A DNA stretch of 63,931 bases, counting the filler, from Atractiella rhizophila (taxonomy: Eukaryota): assembly GCA_021432655.1 (NCBI GenBank). It is 8 parts of 8 records of this genome, joined end to end, with 100 filler letters (N's around TTAATTAATTAA, not from the genome) between each part and the next. Parts side by side here need not be neighbours in the genome. Positions count along the whole stretch, not along the records: positions 1 to 8,869 come from MU272134.1; 7 more parts are not named here. One strand, given 5' to 3'. The notes under the pieces were generated by a model that was given only the letters and a program-made list of their open reading frames with translations, had not been told where the DNA came from and made no database searches. The position numbers and the translations under genes are program-made. Shown in pieces: positions 1-62,310 of the stretch (the first letter of the stretch is position 1; every line of letters starts with the position of its first letter).

Positions 1-640
1 TGTAATTTCAGACTTGTTCCCAGTCTCAACCTCGCATTCCGCACTCTCGCATTTCTAACCTTAACCTTTCCGTATACGCCGTATTCACATCATTCTGCTT
101 GCTCGATGTCTGCCAGGTTCACAAGGCTGAAATCTGCCTTGTTCCACAGGGCTGAATGTTTGCCTTGGACATTCCGGCCTGTCATCAGCAACCTCTCATC
201 GGCTCAAGCTTCGGGTTCGGTCTTCTGTTCATGAAAGTTGCCTCGCAATGTGACACTTTGCAGACAGAAAAAGAGTGTCATCCATAGGACCCATCCCATT
301 TCCTATTGCATGAGATGTTTAGCAAGCGGCACGGCCATGTCTAATTCTATCCTTGTCCCCGCTTGAAGCGCCAGGCATGATGAACCGACGGGGACTTTCC
401 GAGGTGAGACTTCCGCCTTGTTGAATGAATGACGGGATAAGACTTCCGAGTTAGATGACTGAAGAATCGGTGCTGACCGATGCTTCACCCACTCAGAATT
501 GCTACTTATCGCCCGTAGAATGATCTAACGAGATTCCCTCGGGAGGTAGAGGAAGTGGAGCCACAAAGTATATGAAAGAGGACTCCACTTTCATCTTATT
601 AGGAACCTAGGGCAATTTATCATTCCTAAAAATCAACAAC

Positions 641-1853
641 ATGGTGTTCGGTCTCCCAACATTCGCGACGCGATTTGGATTCCCTCAGTTCGATAGCTTT
701 AGGATCCCCAAGCCTACGTTCAAAGTAGAAGATCTCCCAGACCAAACAGGAAGGGTATTCATCATCACTGGGTGTTTATCTTACTTGGGGTTCGTGAGAA
801 TTAGAGGTCTAAATTTGGTTTTACAGCGGTTATGGTGGCATCGGAGAAGAAATTGTCCGCGTCCTCCTCCTGAAGCACGCAACAGCAAGTCTGCTTTGCT
901 AATCTCTGCAGTCGATCCTCACAATCATCACTTTTTTCCCGCAGATATACATTGCTGGTCGCTCTCGCTCCAAATTTGATGCGGCACTCTCCCGTTTGAA
1001 TGCGACTGAAGAACAGCTCAATTTTCTGGAACTTGACCTCGGAAGCGTGAAAAGTGCCAGATTTGCTGCAGCCAAATTTCTTACGTACATTCTCTCGAAT
1101 GCTTTCTACAGAAGATATGCAAACTTATCTTTTCTCAGGTTGGAAAGCAGACTCGATGTCCTCATCAATAATGCTGGTGTGTTGGGCTGTCCTGATGGCT
1201 CACGTATGCTGCCACGCCTCGATTTGCGTTCTTTATCTCACAGAAATATAGGAACTGCTGATGGTTACGAGGAAATGTGGGGTGTGAATGTGTTGGGTCA
1301 CTACGTCTTCACGCTTCCCCTACTGCCACTCATGGAATCTACTATCACGATGGCCCCTAATGCTGGATTCCCCGGAAGAGTTCGGATTGTAAACCTATCG
1401 AGCGCGGGGCATCAGTTGGCTCCAAAGGAAGGTATCGAATGGAAAGATAACAAGGAGAGAGGGACCGACAATGGACCTTGGTACGGTGGACCTTGGACAA
1501 AGCTAAAAGATTATGGGCAATCAAAACTGGTCCACCTTCTCTTTTCCTTTGAGAACTTACGATCTCATCCAATCGAACTAGGGAAACATTCTTTTCACGA
1601 ACTGTCTTGCAAGAAAGCATCCCAACATCCTTTCTCTGTCTGGACACCCTGGTTTGTGCTTTGCATCCAATGAATTTTCTGATCCCTGGTATGTAGGAAA
1701 CATCAGCACTGATCTGTATCGCAGTATGAGCATCGGCGATTTTGCAAAACGCTTCTTCCTCTATCCCACTGATTTGGGCGCATTGACTTCACTATACCAA
1801 GCTTTGAGCTGGGACTTGGATCTCAGCCACAAAACGCTTGGTACGGGCGTCCT
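641..1853 (+). CDS. Short-chain dehydrogenase/reductase (retinol dehydrogenase/WWOX-like), multi-exon, 3' end lost in N gap
   Basis: Spliced TG-GYGGIG cofactor motif after DQTGRVFII; LDVLINNAG, RIVNLSS and YGQSKL (YxxxK) motifs; several ~55-nt GT-AG introns. Confidence 0.9.
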
Positions 1854-2757
1854 NNNNNNNNNNNNNNNNNNNNNNNNNNNNNNNNNNNNNNNNNNNNNNN
1901 NNNNNNNNNNNNNNNNNNNNNNNNNNNNNNNNNNNNNNNNNNNNNNNNNNNNNNNNNNNNNNNNNNNNNNNNNNNNNNNNNNNNNNNNNNNNNNNNNNNN
2001 NNNNNNNNNNNNNNNNNNNNNNNNNNNNNNNNNNNNNNNNNNNNNNNNNNNNNNNNNNNNNNNNNNNNNNNNNNNNNNNNNNNNNNNNNNNNNNNNNNNN
2101 NNNNNNNNNNNNNNNNNNNNNNNNNNNNNNNNNNNNNNNNNNNNNNNNNNNNNNNNNNNNNNNNNNNNNNNNNNNNNNNNNNNNNNNNNNNNNNNNNNNN
2201 NNNNNNNNNNNNNNNNNNNNNNNNNNNNNNNNNNNNNNNNNNNNNNNNNNNNNNNNNNNNNNNNNNNNNNNNNNNNNNNNNNNNNNNNNNNNNNNNNNNN
2301 NNNNNNNNNNNNNNNNNNNNNNNNNNNNNNNNNNNNNNNNNNNNNNNNNNNNNNNNNNNNNNNNNNNNNNNNNNNNNNNNNNNNNNNNNNNNNNNNNNNN
2401 NNNNNNNNNNNNNNNNNNNNNNNNNNNNNNNNNNNNNNNNNNNNNNNNNNNNNNNNNNNNNNNNNNNNNNNNNNNNNNNNNNNNNNNNNNNNNNNNNNNN
2501 NNNNNNNNNNNNNNNNNNNNNNNNNNNNNNNNNNNNNNNNNNNNNNNNNNNNNNNNNNNNNNNNNNNNNNNNNNNNNNNNNNNNNNNNNNNNNNNNNNNN
2601 NNNNNNNNNNNNNNNNNNNNNNNNNNNNNNNNNNNNNNNNNNNNNNNNNNNNNNNNNNNNNNNNNNNNNNNNNNNNNNNNNNNNNNNNNNNNNNNNNNNN
2701 NNNNNNNNNNNNNNNNNNNNNNNNNNNNNNNNNNNNNNNNNNNNNNNNNNNNNNNNN

Positions 2758-3570
2758 GGTTGCTTACCTGCTACCGAGCAGACTCAGTTCGTTCGACCTG
2801 CTAGATAACCTTAAGCTCTAACCGTATCTGCGGAGAGAGCTTCCCCTTTCTGTCGCCACGTTGCTAGGGAACCTCCTTCTATGCTGTCTCCATACCTTTC
2901 GCTATCTCGGCGTATTACTACTTCTCTACAGAAAGCAAACTCTAAGTGCGCGAAGAAAAGCGTAATATGTAAGCTAGTTGGTTATCTCAGACGTCGCAAA
3001 GTATGTGCGTCTTGGGATGACAACTTTCAGGTATTTTGCAGGTTAACATAGCGTTACCCAACGGCTTGTCGTTTACTTACTCGTTTCCATGCTAGTGAGC
3101 CCAGATTTAGCGTCAGTTACCATACGCAATACGACACATTCCTCGTCGACTTGGAAGTAGTAGGAGCGCTCTTGCTGGAGTTAGCTCGAGACTCGCAAGA
3201 CGAGGTTTTGCAGTCACGGAAGGCGCTCAATCCCTCTTTACTAGTATGCTCGCTGTATAAGTAGTTTTCGGTAGGGGGTTAACACGGTTTGTTTCGTTAC
3301 GGACGCAAAAGTGGGGTCTTGGGTCGTATAGGCTTCTTTGCGAAACGCAGCAGGAGGTTTTTAGCGCGCTAGAGTAGTGACCTCCTTTCAACCATCTGCA
3401 AATTTTCTTCGGCTTCTTGGTCAACTTCCGACGTTTCAGGGTGCCCCCACTTACTGTGTTTTCTTCGTTCTTCTATGCGATGCCACTTCCTGTCCTACCT
3501 TAAGCGTAACCAAACGACGGCCTATCTTCCTCCTTCCATTCCCTCTGCTTCGACCTTGTGAAAACGATCA
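2758..3570. other. Mirror-image segment: natural-looking fungal gene sequence only when reversed without complementing (right boundary approximate, 3545-3575)
   Basis: Read backwards, 3566->3249 is a 106-codon hydrophobic ORF followed by a 50-nt GTATGA..CACTGAC..CAG intron. The complement read forwards gives a 59-codon acidic ORF at 2765-2941. Confidence 0.8.
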
Positions 3571-5538
3571 TGAAGATCCCTCAGCTTCTTGAATACATAA
3601 TCCTCCACGCCATTGACATTTTCTTTCGTGGAGAAAATTTGAATTTCGGCCTTTCGTCTCGTGTGGAGCATTTTCTCCAGCTCCTGCCTGTAAATGACCT
3701 CAGATGGACTGTTATGGTGGAACAAATTGTGTGGTACGAACCTCCATTCCTCTTCTAAGTCCGCCCGCTTCAAAAGAGCTCGTGCCTTCTTGTCATCCGC
3801 TTCAGAAATCGGAAGCATTCGCGTCTTCATGTCCAGTGTTAACCTGTCTCATTTTGAATGAGTGAAACGAGCAGGATGGGCCAGCGCACTCGTTAGATTT
3901 GACACCGAACCATCGTGTGCGTTCAACCTTCGTTCCTTCTGCTTCGTGCCTCAAGGAATCACTTCCGTTCTTGTATACCGAAAGAATATCAATACCGTGC
4001 GGATCGCAGTCGACGAGGCAAAGGATTGGAGTTTCAACATGGACTTGGGAAAGGTGATAAATGAAAGAACGTGTTTGAAGATCGGGGTAACCTTTGCCCT
4101 TTCACCACATTTTAACTAATCGTTTAGATTATTGGCTAAAGGGAGTTCTAACAGTTATGAAGAGAATTCTCAGATCAGTTTGAATGTGGACTAGGGTTTT
4201 GAAGACTGCCTGAAGAAGAATAGCATTAAGGCGGCTCAGGCTGACATGTAGCTTACCTCTTTTTCGATGACGATGACAAAGTCCAGATTTCCGAAAACGC
4301 CCTGAATCTCCTTTGAGTGAGGTATTGATGTCTGTTGCCATGTGAGATGGAGCAAGAGTATGAAAGAAATGAGATTGACGTTATACGTCGCGTTCCCAAC
4401 AAGCGTTTCCCCATTCTTCAAATCAATATTTATGGGTCCGTGAAGCAGTCCTTTCGGAGACGCAGCCTACAAAGGTTATAAGCTACGGGTAAATGAAAAG
4501 GCAAAAGTAGGACACGCACAACGTTCAAGTCGGCACGAGTGACAGCAAGAGTTGCCGCCAGATCGTCAATCCACTACAGAAACATAGAACGGAGGAAGCA
4601 GGCGGCTGTTGTGGTAAGAGCTTCTTACGGTATCCACTGTCTTTTGAGAGCCAAAGAGCGCAGGATCGTGGTAATAAATGTCCCTGGTCCCTCACAATGA
4701 CTTCTTCATCCTAAGGCGATCATTTCGCGTACCGTTTCGTAACCACTTTTCCACTCTCCAAAGCTCGTTTGATCTGCACCATGACCACTAACATGGCGGC
4801 TACACTTCCAAGGTTATGACTGAAGGATCCATAAAACAAAGAGAAAATGAACCAAGTTCAGCCGATCCACACTCTTTCCCTCTCTTCTTGGGAAAGGTAA
4901 AAGTCTTGATCAAGTTTGCAGATGTTTTATCCTTCCCCCGCCTCCTTCTCTCAACAAGATTAAGGATAACAGGCTCCATCTTTTTCACATGTGTCCACCC
5001 AACCACTTTCCACATTTTTGGTCGTTTTCGTCGAGCACAAGTCGGCACATCATCGTCGTCGTCTGCTTCCTCCTCATCCATTGTATTAATTGGATTCACG
5101 ATCATCGCTTCATTCTTGATGTGCATGAAGACTCGAAAGGCAATCTTCTCGAGAATTGTGATAATTTCGTTAGGGCTTTGTGGTGGCAAGTTGAAAGTAG
5201 GAGCAGACTGTGAAGCAGCTTCGGAGTCATCCATTTGTTCCCCATCGGAAAACATCTCAACGTCCAATTCCTCATTGGGCCCCGTCGGTTTGAGCGTGTT
5301 TTCACACTCCTCTGGAAGTGCGGTAGTAACAATGTCGCCTTCAGACTCAGGGCCAGAGAAACAAAGGCTTTCGTCATCCTCCTCTGCATTTTCACGGCGC
5401 TCTTCCACATCCTCGATGGATATCACAACAGATTCATTTTCGGATGCAGAATCGCAAAGGATGAAACTTCCAGCAGAGGAGGACGCGTCGAAAATTTCCC
5501 TTGAGTGCATTGTTTGAAGGGACTCTGGAGGAAACATC
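3522..5538 (-). CDS. SPO11: Meiotic recombination protein Spo11/Rec12 (topoisomerase VI A family), multi-exon; true C-terminus uncertain
   Basis: RDIYYHDPALFGSQ with catalytic Tyr (~4640-4685), DDLAATL, AASPKGL, VIVIEKE-AVF, GKGYPD, LVDCDPHG Toprim motif, KAEIQ; acidic N-terminal extension. Confidence 0.95.
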
Positions 5539-6459
5539 AGGGACTCCAAGGACTTCGCAGGAAAACATGCCTCAATGGATCTGATTGAGATGCGGATCCA
5601 CTCATGAACGATGAGCGAGGCCGATGCCGAAGGATGAAGGCGTTGCGATTGCTCAATTTCAGCTGGAGCGCGTTTCTGTGGTCACGTTTTCCACTTCTGC
5701 AGACTTTCCAAATCAACCACCACTTTGTGACTGGCTACATGCATCTTTGACACTCGACTTGTCAATAGAGCTTGCTACCTGTGGTTTTTTATTGTGCTAC
5801 ATTTTGAGGTGGCTTGCTCGTGGCGCTGCAAATGCTCTGACATATCCTGTCGCAAAGTCAAAAGTCATGAAAGACTTTGACTGCTATACCCCCTTCATAT
5901 CACAATTTCAAAATTTGCTGGGGATGAATGTATGTTTGCGAATGCAGTTTTCAACAGGACATAATAACCTATTTCATGGAACATGCTACGTTTCGGAGTT
6001 GTTGAAGGACTCACCCTGTCGCCCCTTTCTGGTCATGACCCATCAATAGCATTTCCCCTTCATTCCTAGACATTTTAGCTGTATTGTGCTCACGAAATAC
6101 TAAAAGGAGCAATAATCAGGCACGCGGGCGGGTTTTTATATGTAGTTGGTAGGAAACATCGACGGACGCCGCACACCGAATCTCAGATCCAAAAGGCGAG
6201 GCACAAATAGACAAAAAAATGCTTTCGTTGATCGGTTGGTCCGAACAACGCTGATCTCATTCTGACCTTGTCATTCCCTGTACCAAACTTTGAACAGCAC
6301 TCTTACTTGCGCACGGATGCTGCTGTATACAGACGACGGATTGACTAGAAGATATTCCGCACGAGCTGCCCCTAGTTAAATGATGCTTTTCCTTGTTCGA
6401 TCCGTGTCCCTCGTGTCCCTCGCTTCAAATGTGTTTGGGAGATGACACCGTAAAGACAG

Positions 6460-8006
6460 ATGGAGACTCCAACGTGTTGTCCTATTCCCGGTGCCTGTTT
6501 TACCTCACCTACGCATTATGAATCCCTGTGTACTAAGTGCCTCGCGGATGCTATGTATGGACAAGGGTGATCTTGAAGTGAACCGCTGTACTTCGGCCGT
6601 AAGGAGTGCAACAAACCTGCTTCGAGCAACTTCAAGGTCAGTGAGTAAGAGGTTGTTGGATTTGGTATTTTCTTGCGACATCTCGTCCAGAATCCTGACA
6701 GGAAGCGATGCCGAGTATGTGGAATGAACCGCTCAGGTGGTACGCATGCATTGTCACCCTCGGCAATTTCTTTCACTTCAACGACATTGGTCATTCTACA
6801 ATGTTTAGTGATCAGGTCAACGCCATTTGAATTCAACAGCACCTACCGGTCTCCTTATCCGTATATAATTGATCTGGGCCGCTGTAGATTTAGATTTGTC
6901 GCCCGCCTTCCTGTTGGCGACGATATCAAGCCTCTTCCCACCGAACTCCATGCTTGCGAACTCTCTAACGCGATCCTGTCAGGCTAACAGAAGAAGAGAG
7001 ACATCAATACTAGGATCAATTCAAAACCGTCGGTTCGTGTGTGAATGTGAGCAGTTGTTTCTCCTGGCGTTGATCTCACATAGGGTATCCAAAGTTAAAT
7101 AACGATTCTTAAAAGGCGAGCTGGTACTCTGTACCAGCAGACTGATGAAGAGACTCTTCTCCTTCTTCATCCCTGCCTCTTTAAGGCATACAAACGGAAG
7201 AAAAATGTCGTCTAGTGTCGAAGCAAGTGACAGATTGAGGTTCAGATTTTTCTCTCCAATTCTCGGTTTTTCATGTCTCTTTTCTGCCAGGAACTGTTAC
7301 ATTGCAATTTCGACTCCTCAAACCACACACGTACCAGATAATCCGTCCTTCCCTACCTGTTTCACCAAGCTGGAAGTCCAATTCGTGCCTGTAGAGCAAA
7401 TCAAGTTTCGGAGTGCGGCACTGTCCATTAAACTTGTGGCTAGAGAGGAGGATAATAACTCACCACGGGTGGTTGAGATGCGTCCTTATGGATCAAGCGC
7501 TGAGGTCACAATGGCTGAGAACATGTAAGCCATCTCCTTTGCATCAAGTTGAGGGAGGAAACCTGAGAGAAAGCCTGGGCGGCAGACGGAGATCTTGGGG
7601 ACTCCCGCCTCACTCTTCCCAACATCGCTACTTTCCCACTCAGCTAAACCCTCAATCACCTCATTTCCCAGACCATACTCATATTCGCGCTTCAGGATCT
7701 GGGTAACACTTTCTTTCTGCATCGTTCTAGCGTTCAATGTCTGACTGCTCGTATATCTCTGCAGAGTCGGGTCAAGCAAAGCAACCTGGATCCTGCAAGA
7801 CACCTCCACAGAGGTTCTAGGTATCCCTTCCGGTCTGTCATTGGGACTGACAGTCGCCCACGACGACAAAGCTTTCGACGCGTTCATCGAGGCAGAATTT
7901 GCTTTGCTTGATCAAAATGATTCAACGGGTGGAAGCCTGAGGGCTGCAGTGACAAAGCAAGGAGTTGATTGGAAGATCGCTTTTGATCACAGTCCAAGGA
8001 ACTGAC
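6460..8006 (+). CDS. Hypothetical multi-exon protein, possibly frameshifted
   Basis: Coding-like stretches KLEVQFVPVEQIKFRSAALSIKL (7360-7520) and ATWILQDTSTEVLGIPSGLSLGLTVAHDDKAFDAFIEAEF..PRN* (to TGA ~8006) with GT..AG introns; start uncertain. Confidence 0.45.
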
Positions 8007-8869
8007 ATTTTGAATAGCTTACCGTTTATGTTCGCCCACTTGGCGACGTTGTTTCCTTCCCAATTCGTCCACTCAAGTTACATTCTTGCTTCCACGGGGT
8101 TCAGGTAGTTAAAAGTGTCTGTTGAATATCAATGGATAGAGTACTTTCTAGACGCCAATCCCACAACAAGCCAAAGCATAAAGGTACAACAATACCGATC
8201 AACGCCCTATTTCACGCGTTCACGCGTTCACTCGAAATATATATTGTGGTCCGTAGCCTTTCCTTCGTTTGGCAGACCACCATCACCCTCAGATGCACAT
8301 CATTCTGCTGAGGTCTCCTTCATCTTCACATCTTTTTCCGGATCGACGGCTGCAGGCATACTCGGCAATTTTAAGGCATCATTGGGTATTAACAGCAGTT
8401 CTCCTTCCTTGATCTCCTGTTCGACGTCCTTATCTGGTGTATCCCAATCCTCAAACCGCAGCTTCTTGAAATCCTGCATGTCCGAACGCTCGAGTTTGAT
8501 AGACCGTTTGTATATGGAGGAAAAAGAGGATCCCAGAGAAGAATCAAGAGGAGTGTAGGTTACGTGGAGGATGAAGCGGAAGGCAAAATTAGCCGTGTGT
8601 TTACCTAGACAATGTTCAACACGCGTGGGATTAGCTTTAAGAACACTTACAACGAAAATAAATGGGTATTGATGGAGGCTATTCCCGATGCTTGAGTCCC
8701 GTTCAACTTTGGAAAGATGTAATGGAAGCATACGACTTGGTCAGTCGAATCCCGATGCGGATTCGGCCTTGTCTGCAACCTCCATGCATTCGCAGATTTC
8801 TTGACATTGACTTCATACGGAAAGTCAATCGTCGTCTTCCGGCGAACGGGTATCGGCGGTCGTCCTCCT

Positions 8870-8969
8870 NNNNNNNNNNNNNNNNNNNNNNNNNNNNNNN
8901 NNNNNNNNNNNNNTTAATTAATTAANNNNNNNNNNNNNNNNNNNNNNNNNNNNNNNNNNNNNNNNNNNN
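8870..8969. other. Artificial scaffold-joining spacer N44-TTAATTAATTAA-N44; identical spacers at 17831-17930, 26789-26888, 35735-35834, 44613-44712, 53426-53525, 62211-62310
   Basis: Exactly 100 bp each, stop codons in all six frames; genes are truncated at the spacers; intervening pieces are 8861, 8858, 8846, 8778, 8713 and 8685 bp, in descending order. Confidence 0.98.
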
Positions 8970-17830: not shown

Positions 17831-17930
17831 NNNNNNNNNNNNNNNNNNNNNNNNNNNNNNNNNNNNNNNNNNNNTTAATTAATTAANNNNNNNNNNNNNN
17901 NNNNNNNNNNNNNNNNNNNNNNNNNNNNNN

Positions 17931-26150: not shown

Positions 26151-26747
26151 TGCGTGTACAAGACAGCGCCGCGAATAAACGCTTCGGACCATATAAGCTT
26201 TGTGACACTTAATCAGCCACAGTCAATATGTGAGGTTCATCTCTCGAAATGAGTGACTCACGAGTCAACCACGTCGACAACGAGGAGAGCTGAGAGCTCT
26301 AGAGCAAGTATCTTCCTTGACTGTTCCGAATCATTTTGGTACAATTTGATTCTTCAGTACAAAACAGGGTAGCGTACCAACTGGAGCATACTAAAACAGT
26401 GATGAAACTGACATGCTCGTAAGAAAGCTGTGCGGTTCCATAGAAGGGGACAGACCTGAGAGAGTCCGATCCCCCACAGACAGAAGGAGAGGACGACAGA
26501 GACGAGGACGGGACGGACAACTTCGCCATATGATGATGGTGCCATCTCGATCTCACAACCGATTGTTGTTTGAGTACGAAGCGTCTCCCTTTTATGCTCA
26601 GGGTATGTTGTGACGACATATAAAATTGTGCAAGGCCCATGTGCTCCAAATTATGAAGTCAGTCCATAATACTTGTCTATAGTATAATGCTCTTTCGTAC
26701 TTTTGGTTACGTCTTCTCATACATTGTGTTCATTGAACGTAACGTAA

Positions 26748-26788
26748 GGTTAGGGTTAGGGTTAGGGTTAGGGTTAGGGTTAGGGTTA
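26748..26788 (+). repeat. Telomere repeat (TTAGGG)n at scaffold end
   Basis: About six perfect TTAGGG units with the G-rich strand running 5'->3' to the scaffold end. Confidence 0.93.
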
Positions 26789-26888
26789 NNNNNNNNNNNN
26801 NNNNNNNNNNNNNNNNNNNNNNNNNNNNNNNNTTAATTAATTAANNNNNNNNNNNNNNNNNNNNNNNNNNNNNNNNNNNNNNNNNNNN

Positions 26889-35734: not shown

Positions 35735-35834
35735 NNNNNNNNNNNNNNNNNNNNNNNNNNNNNNNNNNNNNNNNNNNNTTAATTAATTAANNNNNNNNNN
35801 NNNNNNNNNNNNNNNNNNNNNNNNNNNNNNNNNN

Positions 35835-44612: not shown

Positions 44613-44890
44613 NNNNNNNNNNNNNNNNNNNNNNNNNNNNNNNNNNNNNNNNNNNNTTAATTAATTAANNNNNNNNNNNNNNNNNNNNNNNNNNNNNNNN
44701 NNNNNNNNNNNNACAGAGAGATCCCTGTGGCAAAAGATTGGCCACAGTTCCAGAAAGTGCTCGAAGGAAACGAAACGCGCAAGTGCGCAAGTGGCGAAAG
44801 GAGGAGGCGCACGATTCTGTCAATAACTTCACCTGCAAATACGAGTCACAAAAGCGGTGGGACTCGCACTGCAGGGGTCTTGCATATTTG

Positions 44891-53425: not shown

Positions 53426-55229
53426 NNNNNNNNNNNNNNNNNNNNNNNNNNNNNNNNNNNNNNNNNNNNTTAATTAATTAANNNNNNNNNNNNNNNNNNN
53501 NNNNNNNNNNNNNNNNNNNNNNNNNAGAGGGCGTCCAAAGGGGCAATGGGGAGGACATGGTGTGTGGAAGATGTGTTGGCGTGAATTCGAAGGAGAGACG
53601 GCAGCCCGTGTGTGGAACACGTGACCAGACCGCGGTCACTTGGGTTCTGTTTCACGACAACAGTCATGATAAGTATTAATGATGTCGAATACAGTCTGAA
53701 TCCTCTCTTGAGATCCGTCATTCCATTGGAGCGAGCCACCTGAGAATCAAGCATCCTCGAAGATGCATCGAAGGAGGCAGTCATCCTCTCCCACACTCTG
53801 CTGATATGCAAGGCTCTGTTCGATCTGAACCAGAGACAAATGTTCGAATTGGAAAACCATCAATGCCTCAAAATTTAGGAGGACAACTGTAAGAGCATCG
53901 ATATTGCCGTTTTGGATCCTTACACTTATCGTCCTCATCCCTCTTCTCTACACTTTGGATGGTGATGCTGACGACGTAGCGCGCAAGGTGGACCATTGCC
54001 TCACTGCCTCTTTCAGGATGCCAAACTCGTTTCTCTACAAGCTTCTCTCTCTTCATTCTCTGCATGCGACGATTGATGGATGGCATATACCCTCTAGACA
54101 GAAGCCAAACGACCTCGCCTGCCTGAGGACCTCTGCAATCCAACTACGCAGGTCTGAGTTGATACCATTACCTCTATGCTCTCGCACACGAGAGTTGGGC
54201 TTTTCTTCGCCACCACATCCATCTTCTTGCCTCCCTTTCAAAGTGACCTAGCGCTCTCAGTCTGAAGGTGTGAAGATATGTTCCTGCTCTTCCAACCGTA
54301 CGAACCCTCCTCACTCTAGACTTTGACAGTCACTGCCCTTAGGCCATTGAAACGAATCACTATATTGAGATTGCCATGTCGACGAGAACCTTGCGCGCGA
54401 ATAAATTGAATGGAAAGTCAGCAATGGAGGCAATGGCGGAGGTTTAAGAGGGATTAGATCGGACAGTCGGTTGAGATCTCCCCACAGGCAGACAGAGTGG
54501 CATTCGAAGTTGTGGGTTGTGTTGCTGGTTGGAAAGAGAGGGAGTGAATGGGGAGGAGATAAAATGTAGTGACGATGAAAAACTTGAATTCAGTGACAGT
54601 GATCTGCTTATTCTAGACCTTCTGTGGAATCGACCTAGCATTTATCGATATTCATCCGCAATCGGGTCCGTTATTGGACAAGTCTAGTCACATTCAATGG
54701 TCTCCTGCACAATCATATAGATTGAGATGTGATTACCGTGAGAGATCTGGTGGGGGATTGCAAACTCTCGCTCGCAATGCAATGCGATGTAAAGCTGAGA
54801 TATTCCAGGATACAAGGAAGATTGGATTGCGAATGTGATGGGGGTTGCACACAAGTATACTGATGGTGGGATGCTGGGATGAGGTAGAGAGGAGGCGCAA
54901 CGGGGCATGATGCACGAAATTTGGCAAAGAGGAATGCGCAAGAGGAACCGCGTAAATAGGCGCAAACGCAGGTGCGTTTGCGTATGTCTCCACACCACAC
55001 TGATGATAAAAGAGCGCACACTCGTTCTTCTACGCTACCATTTTCGAAACTTGATAGGCCAACTTCACACGCTCTTTATTTCATTCCTTTTGGCGTCTCT
55101 CTTACTTCCACCATCACCATCATTGGCAAAACATCAGGCCAGAATGGATGGAGAATCGACGAATGATTGTTTCCTCACCAGACTCGCAACTCCAACTCGC
55201 TCGTTTTCAGTTCATACACCTCATTGTGA

Positions 55230-61975: not shown

Positions 61976-62310
61976 TTATGGCGGTCAACTGTATCCAGTC
62001 CATGCTGTTGTACCATAAGGGTATCCATTATTACCAATGCAATGCTAACAGACACAAAAATGCAAAGTAAGTCTAGCCTTGTGATCCAATATAAAACAGT
62101 CCAGAAAACCCCGAAGCTACAACGATTCCGTATTATTATAACACTGCAGATGCCGTCTAAATTATTTTTTCTCCCTTTTCCAAAACACCAACAGCCATAG
62201 TCAAGAGACCNNNNNNNNNNNNNNNNNNNNNNNNNNNNNNNNNNNNNNNNNNNNTTAATTAATTAANNNNNNNNNNNNNNNNNNNNNNNNNNNNNNNNNN
62301 NNNNNNNNNN

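Follow-up and report, generated by a model that had tools for sequence, protein, structure and literature searches.

The locus considered here lies beside the meiosis gene SPO11 of Atractiella rhizophila and raises an unusual question: is a stretch of DNA that can be read only with its letters reversed, and not complemented, a property of the genome or of the record? A preliminary description of the window (the whole stretch of DNA that was analysed, 63,931 nucleotides long) had claimed such a stretch at 2758–3570 and had read from it the ends of two convergent fungal genes. The finding sits inside the first scaffold piece (1–8869), and the features that define it are the following:

1854–2757, no strand: scaffold gap of 904 N, separating the two contigs of the first small scaffold (1–8869).
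2758–3567, no strand: reversed-only block, 810 nt of true sequence with the letter order reversed in place without complementing.
3568–5510, minus strand: SPO11 body, correctly written, with its ATG at 5510–5508 and the Pfam family TOP6A-Spo11_Toprim (4.2e-20) on 3802–4101 of the minus strand.
3687–3740, 3842–3887, 4098–4151 and 4209–4255, minus strand: SPO11 introns of 54, 46, 54 and 47 nt, respectively, delimited by a spliced contig from a public run.

The first base of the block (2758) is also the first base 3' of the 904-N gap. The window itself is a composite, in which seven N44-TTAATTAATTAA-N44 linkers (8870–8969, 17831–17930, 26789–26888, 35735–35834, 44613–44712, 53426–53525, and 62211–62310) delimit scaffold pieces of ~8.8–9.0 kb, whose length declines slowly from about 8.96 to 8.79 kb. 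We take this pattern to reflect the chaining of size-sorted unplaced scaffolds with a six-frame stop spacer; anything that apparently crosses a linker is non-contiguous in the genome.

A homologue was sought for the gene that flanks the block on its right. With the last exon of SPO11, in its correctly written part (window 3571–3848, minus strand), as the query, one protein was found, P0001, of 542 aa (E = 4.3e-17), which its source names as an Atractiella rhizophila 'DNA topoisomerase IV, alpha subunit'. This protein holds a TP6A_N domain (PF04406, 2.9e-22), the winged-helix domain that in this family bears the catalytic Tyr, and a Spo11 Toprim domain (PF21180, 2.1e-33), and PF21180 is also the family found in the window on 3802–4101 of the minus strand (4.2e-20). 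Judged by its domain content, with TP6A_N recognised through P0001 and Toprim through both P0001 and the window, the flanking gene is a Spo11/topoisomerase VI subunit A.

The oligonucleotide statistics of the block were compared with those of its mirrored string by means of strand-symmetric Markov models of orders 1–5, trained on the rest of the window, in which the log-likelihood ratio (LLR) is that of the given string minus that of the letter-reversed one. The block yielded LLR values of -22.2, -24.9, -25.0, -25.8, and -33.9 at orders 1–5, against means of +16.5 to +39.8 and a minimum single value of -0.9 for 134 other chunks of 813 nt (these control chunks belonged to the training set, so that their LLR is somewhat inflated at high order). 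This corresponds to z = -5.1 to -7.4 over the five orders. The mirrored string, and not the given one, is thus the one that fits the rest of the window, and the mirrored k-mer statistics of the block are the host's own. The cumulative LLR drops from 2758 and turns up at about 3510–3540.

Only a simple repeat elsewhere in the window behaves in this way. A sliding 300-nt scan of the 64 kb revealed the block as the sole extended negative stretch besides a (TTAGGG)n telomere repeat at ~26500–26788, with which the third scaffold piece ends and whose negative value is expected of a simple repeat. None of the six 200-nt flanks of the other three scaffold gaps had a negative LLR, and among the 14 flanks of 200 nt at the seven linkers, the telomere flank was the only negative one. 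On the real strands as given, the six longest ORFs of the block all failed to reach the Pfam cut-off (0/6), and the six real frames give no gene; the frames that can be read require reversal or complementation alone. Copies of the block elsewhere in the window, either given or restored, were not found by blastn, where the best matches were of 15 nt (E = 0.11).

The position of the mirrored sequence relative to SPO11 is revealed by the C-terminus of the homologue. As given, the SPO11 frame follows P0001 as far as ..LHD, beyond which it runs through 13 unrelated codons to a stop. Past ..KKLRDLHD, the C-terminus of P0001 is an acidic stretch, and this stretch lies in the leftmost part of the block, away from the SPO11 body:

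2759–2941, no strand: last 60 codons of SPO11 and its stop (2939–2941), readable only in the complement read from left to right, with a methionine at 2765.

Aligned locally to the final 120 aa of P0001, the sequence scores 260 as given and 559 when 2758–3567 is reversed in place. The minus-strand frame of SPO11 then extends by 60 codons, 58 of which (58/60) are identical to the P0001 tail, and ends at the same residue. This match fixes the geometry of the block, which is reversed in place, so that in the true order, base 2758 adjoins base 3568 and the SPO11 tail follows on the minus strand directly after 3568. The true sequence is, in other words, the block reversed in place, in which SPO11 has 60 more codons before a normal stop. 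An alternative in which the block is complemented in place, with SPO11 running into a same-frame AKVFQ... reading, is ruled out by the P0001 tail together with the contig overhang described below.

This geometry modifies several of the initial claims. The acidic C-terminus at 2765–2941, which had been read as the end of a separate gene, is present as a reading, and it is the tail of SPO11 itself. The block had also been thought to replace the true 3' end of SPO11; on the contrary, it contains that end, moved to the far side by the reversal. As for its extent, a mirrored block does begin at 2758, and it closes at exactly 3567 instead of 3570.

Further evidence comes from contigs assembled from public runs, three of which carry the stretch. 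X1 and X2, whose word shares are 0.73 and 0.72, derive from the same sample, and X3 (0.28) from another sample with another organism label, so that the three represent at most two independent sources, which may include the sample from which the window was assembled. Being assembled contigs, these data show presence and not absence; a depth of 0 over 2758–3567 (15 bins, three runs), next to 15 covered bins from 3568, was for this reason not counted as evidence. When the contigs were aligned to 2758–4377, the fit began exactly at 3568 in the three runs (3/3) and proceeded rightwards, and each run's contig extended to the left by 106 letters at odds with the record. The 30-letter consensus of this overhang, identical in all three runs, equals the reverse of 2758–2787 (30/30) and differs from the given 3538–3567. 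Of the 106 overhang letters, these 30 were the ones compared; for the remainder of the block, support comes from the match to the protein (180 nt) and from the statistics. The X3 contig skips 54, 46, 54, and 47 nt with CT..AC ends, equivalent to GT..AG on the minus strand. This splicing indicates that X3 derives from SPO11 RNA, and X3 also reads into the restored tail. The claim that this stretch makes sense only with its letters reversed and not complemented is upheld by three independent lines: the LLR of -22 to -34, the P0001 tail, and the contig overhang.

Several other observations concern the same contigs. Between the X1 and X2 contigs and the window there are 3–4 differences over 3568–4245, and two alleles are present in these contigs over 4216–4347, one with 0 and the other with 4 differences; the window has the look of a single haplotype from a heterozygous or dikaryotic genome, or else of a closely related strain. 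Besides, the gene model of P0001 departs in places from the splices of X3, since 12 residues encoded by the window after ..LTLD are missing from it.

We therefore regard it as very nearly certain that 2758–3567 is a data-handling artefact, introduced during assembly or processing, in which true fungal sequence was reversed without complementing at the gap-side edge of a contig. This reading follows from the mirrored statistics, the match to the P0001 tail, the contig overhangs, the start of the block at the gap edge, and the lack of a Pfam-recognised ORF in the sequence as given. An assembly or processing artefact was also the origin favoured in the preliminary description, which the statistics, the contig overhangs, and the homologue tail agree in supporting. 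No DNA molecule with the given sequence need exist.

Regarding the way in which such a block could have arisen, the given letters would be the complement, with order unchanged, of a minus-strand extension that starts at 3568. As the simplest origin, a piece in need of reverse-complementing may have been complemented only, either when the contig was extended leftwards into the gap or when a small contig was flipped. An extension step would suit the join that is exact to the base, the lack of Ns at 3567/3568, and the location of the block at the gap edge. A specific route of this kind, be it gap extension or contig flip, is proposed from the geometry, and we hold it to be about as likely as not. 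With the remaining three gaps clean, there is no demonstration of a systematic bug in the software.

Once the block is restored, its remaining part offers a second putative gene, hereafter X, for which the following features are proposed:

3249–3566, read backwards: putative penultimate exon of gene X, with 106 codons and no stop before the edge of the block, on the true plus strand coming out of the gap.
3199–3248, read backwards: putative intron of gene X, 50 nt, with GTATGA at 3248, a CACTGAC branch motif, and a CAG ending at 3199.
3115–3198, read backwards from 3198 to 3115: putative last exon of gene X, 27 codons plus TGA, presumably coding.
2942–3114, no strand: stretch of 173 nt between the two convergent stops, presumably holding their 3' UTRs.

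The two exons and the intron had been proposed before, and they are indeed present: the backward frame 3566->3249, originally described as membrane-protein-like, a putative character, is open over 106 codons, and the 50-nt intron, with its splice and branch motifs, is followed by a short last exon. The size of this putative intron fits those of the four SPO11 introns (54, 46, 54, and 47 nt). Hydrophobic 19-residue windows in X start at residues 21–42 and 88, spanning stretches of ~21–60 and 88–106. The length of the frame is at chance level, given that 2000 sequences of 810 nt simulated under a Markov-1 model had a longest six-frame run of 109.6 +/- 26.3 codons on average, with P(>=107) = 0.495 for a 107-codon frame, and its codon-usage score of 11.7 does not discriminate it from two meaningless frames, which scored 12.3 and 11.6. 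Among the proteins gathered in this analysis, the restored frames reached a best local score of 48, which is chance level, and a search of metagenome contigs with P0001 yielded one locus (L001), at 27% identity, of no use for the neighbour gene.

The reading of X as a coding gene is based on a frame that stays open as far as the block extends and on splice signals of canonical form, according to which X probably represents the 3' end of a neighbouring gene that comes out of the gap and converges on SPO11. With respect to the two convergent gene ends originally proposed, that of SPO11 is firmly established by the 58/60 match, and that of X holds as probable only. We infer that the restored locus is an ordinary convergent pair, with SPO11 on the minus strand and X on the plus strand, whose stops lie 173 nt apart.

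On the other side of the gap, a single gene approaches it from the left:

641–1853, plus strand: short-chain dehydrogenase (SDR) gene with an adh_short domain, running into the gap and lying outside the artefact.

Its orthologue P0002 (333 aa) is 100% identical over window 1245–1529, carries adh_short, and extends 41 residues beyond ..LSH. These residues differ from those encoded by X, which discards X as the C-terminus of the SDR. The 904-N gap thus conceals the ~34 final codons of the SDR as well as the 5' part of the putative neighbour gene X. The SDR frame is lost ~20 nt before the contig end (1828–1837), at CAC AAAA CGC, where P0002 (..LSHNAWYGRP..) needs two fewer A, and NAWYGRP can be read in another frame; a low-quality contig end or an allele is probably responsible for this loss. 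For both P0001 and P0002, named as Atractiella rhizophila, the longest contig is given as 60,466 nt. The locus seems to be present and correctly assembled in another public record, which would include gene X.

Among the rival explanations, the one that survives best is that the reversal was made after the original assembly, either on purpose or by processing (as a decoy, in masking, or in reformatting), and that the primary assembly is correct. Reversed strings are, as a matter of general knowledge, commonly used as composition-matched decoys, the window has evidently been processed already, as its scaffolds are chained by linkers, and a mirrored flank occurs at only one of the four gaps. However, a start at the gap edge and a join that is exact to the base are to be expected of an assembly step more than of a decoy placed at random, and we consider such a downstream origin improbable. 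Under either origin, the block is not a real feature.

Genuine mirror-image DNA, carried here by the source strain or haplotype, would take the record at face value, and the few differences between the window and the run contigs mentioned above do indicate a somewhat different allele or strain. Such a molecule would, however, destroy the 3' end of SPO11, which is intact in the homologue and in the three run contigs (3/3) that cross 3568 un-mirrored. In addition, the edge of the block is the edge of a contig at a gap, and there is no known enzyme route to such a product; to our knowledge, no polymerase or recombinase yields a reverse, non-complemented copy. The probability of this explanation is accordingly negligible.

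An inserted construct or foreign DNA, which had been named as another possible origin, is equally negligible. It would account for the absence of a recognisable gene on the real strands, where 0/6 ORFs reach the Pfam cut-off, but the restored reading is that of the organism's own gene: the reversed block continues the host SPO11, with 58/60 residues identical to those of a close relative, and it continues the public run contigs base for base, with mirrored k-mer statistics that are those of the host. Least probable of all is ordinary intergenic DNA with coincidental mirrored readings, a notion compatible with the chance-level length (P = 0.495) and the non-discriminating codon score of the 107-codon frame, but contradicted by the homologue-tail match (58/60) and the contig-edge match (30/30), which cannot both be chance, and by the LLR z of -5 to -7, which agrees against chance.

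If the block is an artefact of data handling, as we conclude, it has no biological meaning and its relevance is one of quality control. In the record, SPO11 looks truncated, its acidic tail of 60 residues having given way to a false end of 13, the neighbour gene cannot be read at its 3' end, and gene models or alignments over 2758–3567 are wrong. Ordinary alignment of the given block string finds nothing. The LLR of the given against the mirrored string under a strand-symmetric Markov model separated the block from the 134 control chunks, and could be used as a cheap quality-control screen. It is conceivable, albeit doubtful, that reverse-only or complement-only blocks at gap edges form a recurrent and unnoticed class of draft-assembly error derived from a strand-handling fault. 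Were this the case, such blocks would escape alignment-based quality control, as neither strand matches anything, and a mirrored-versus-given Markov scan would detect them. Phrase searches of the literature on reversed, not complemented, sequence returned no work that deals with assembly artefacts as judged by its title and the beginning of its abstract.

Among the closest known systems are the misoriented contigs and false inversions found at the gaps of draft assemblies, with which the block shares its location at a contig edge beside an N gap, its occurrence in a small unplaced scaffold, and a broken gene model. A false inversion, however, is a reverse complement and reads normally on the other strand, whereas the block is reversed only, so that neither strand of the record is natural. 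A true biological inversion is discarded for a similar reason, as the real frames give no gene and 0/6 ORFs reach the Pfam cut-off. Mirror repeats, the H-DNA or triplex-forming elements, resemble the block in that a sequence is set against its own letters in reverse. Nevertheless, they have both halves on one strand and are usually homopurine/homopyrimidine, whereas the block has a mixed composition (A173 C208 G183 T246) and its un-mirrored copy is absent from the window, where the lack of a second copy (best match 15 nt, E = 0.11) led us to reject this candidate. Finally, like the reversed decoys employed as negative controls, the block retains its base composition and has lost the biological signal on both strands; but decoys are labelled and kept apart, while the block sits inside a genome record and joins its flanking gene base for base.
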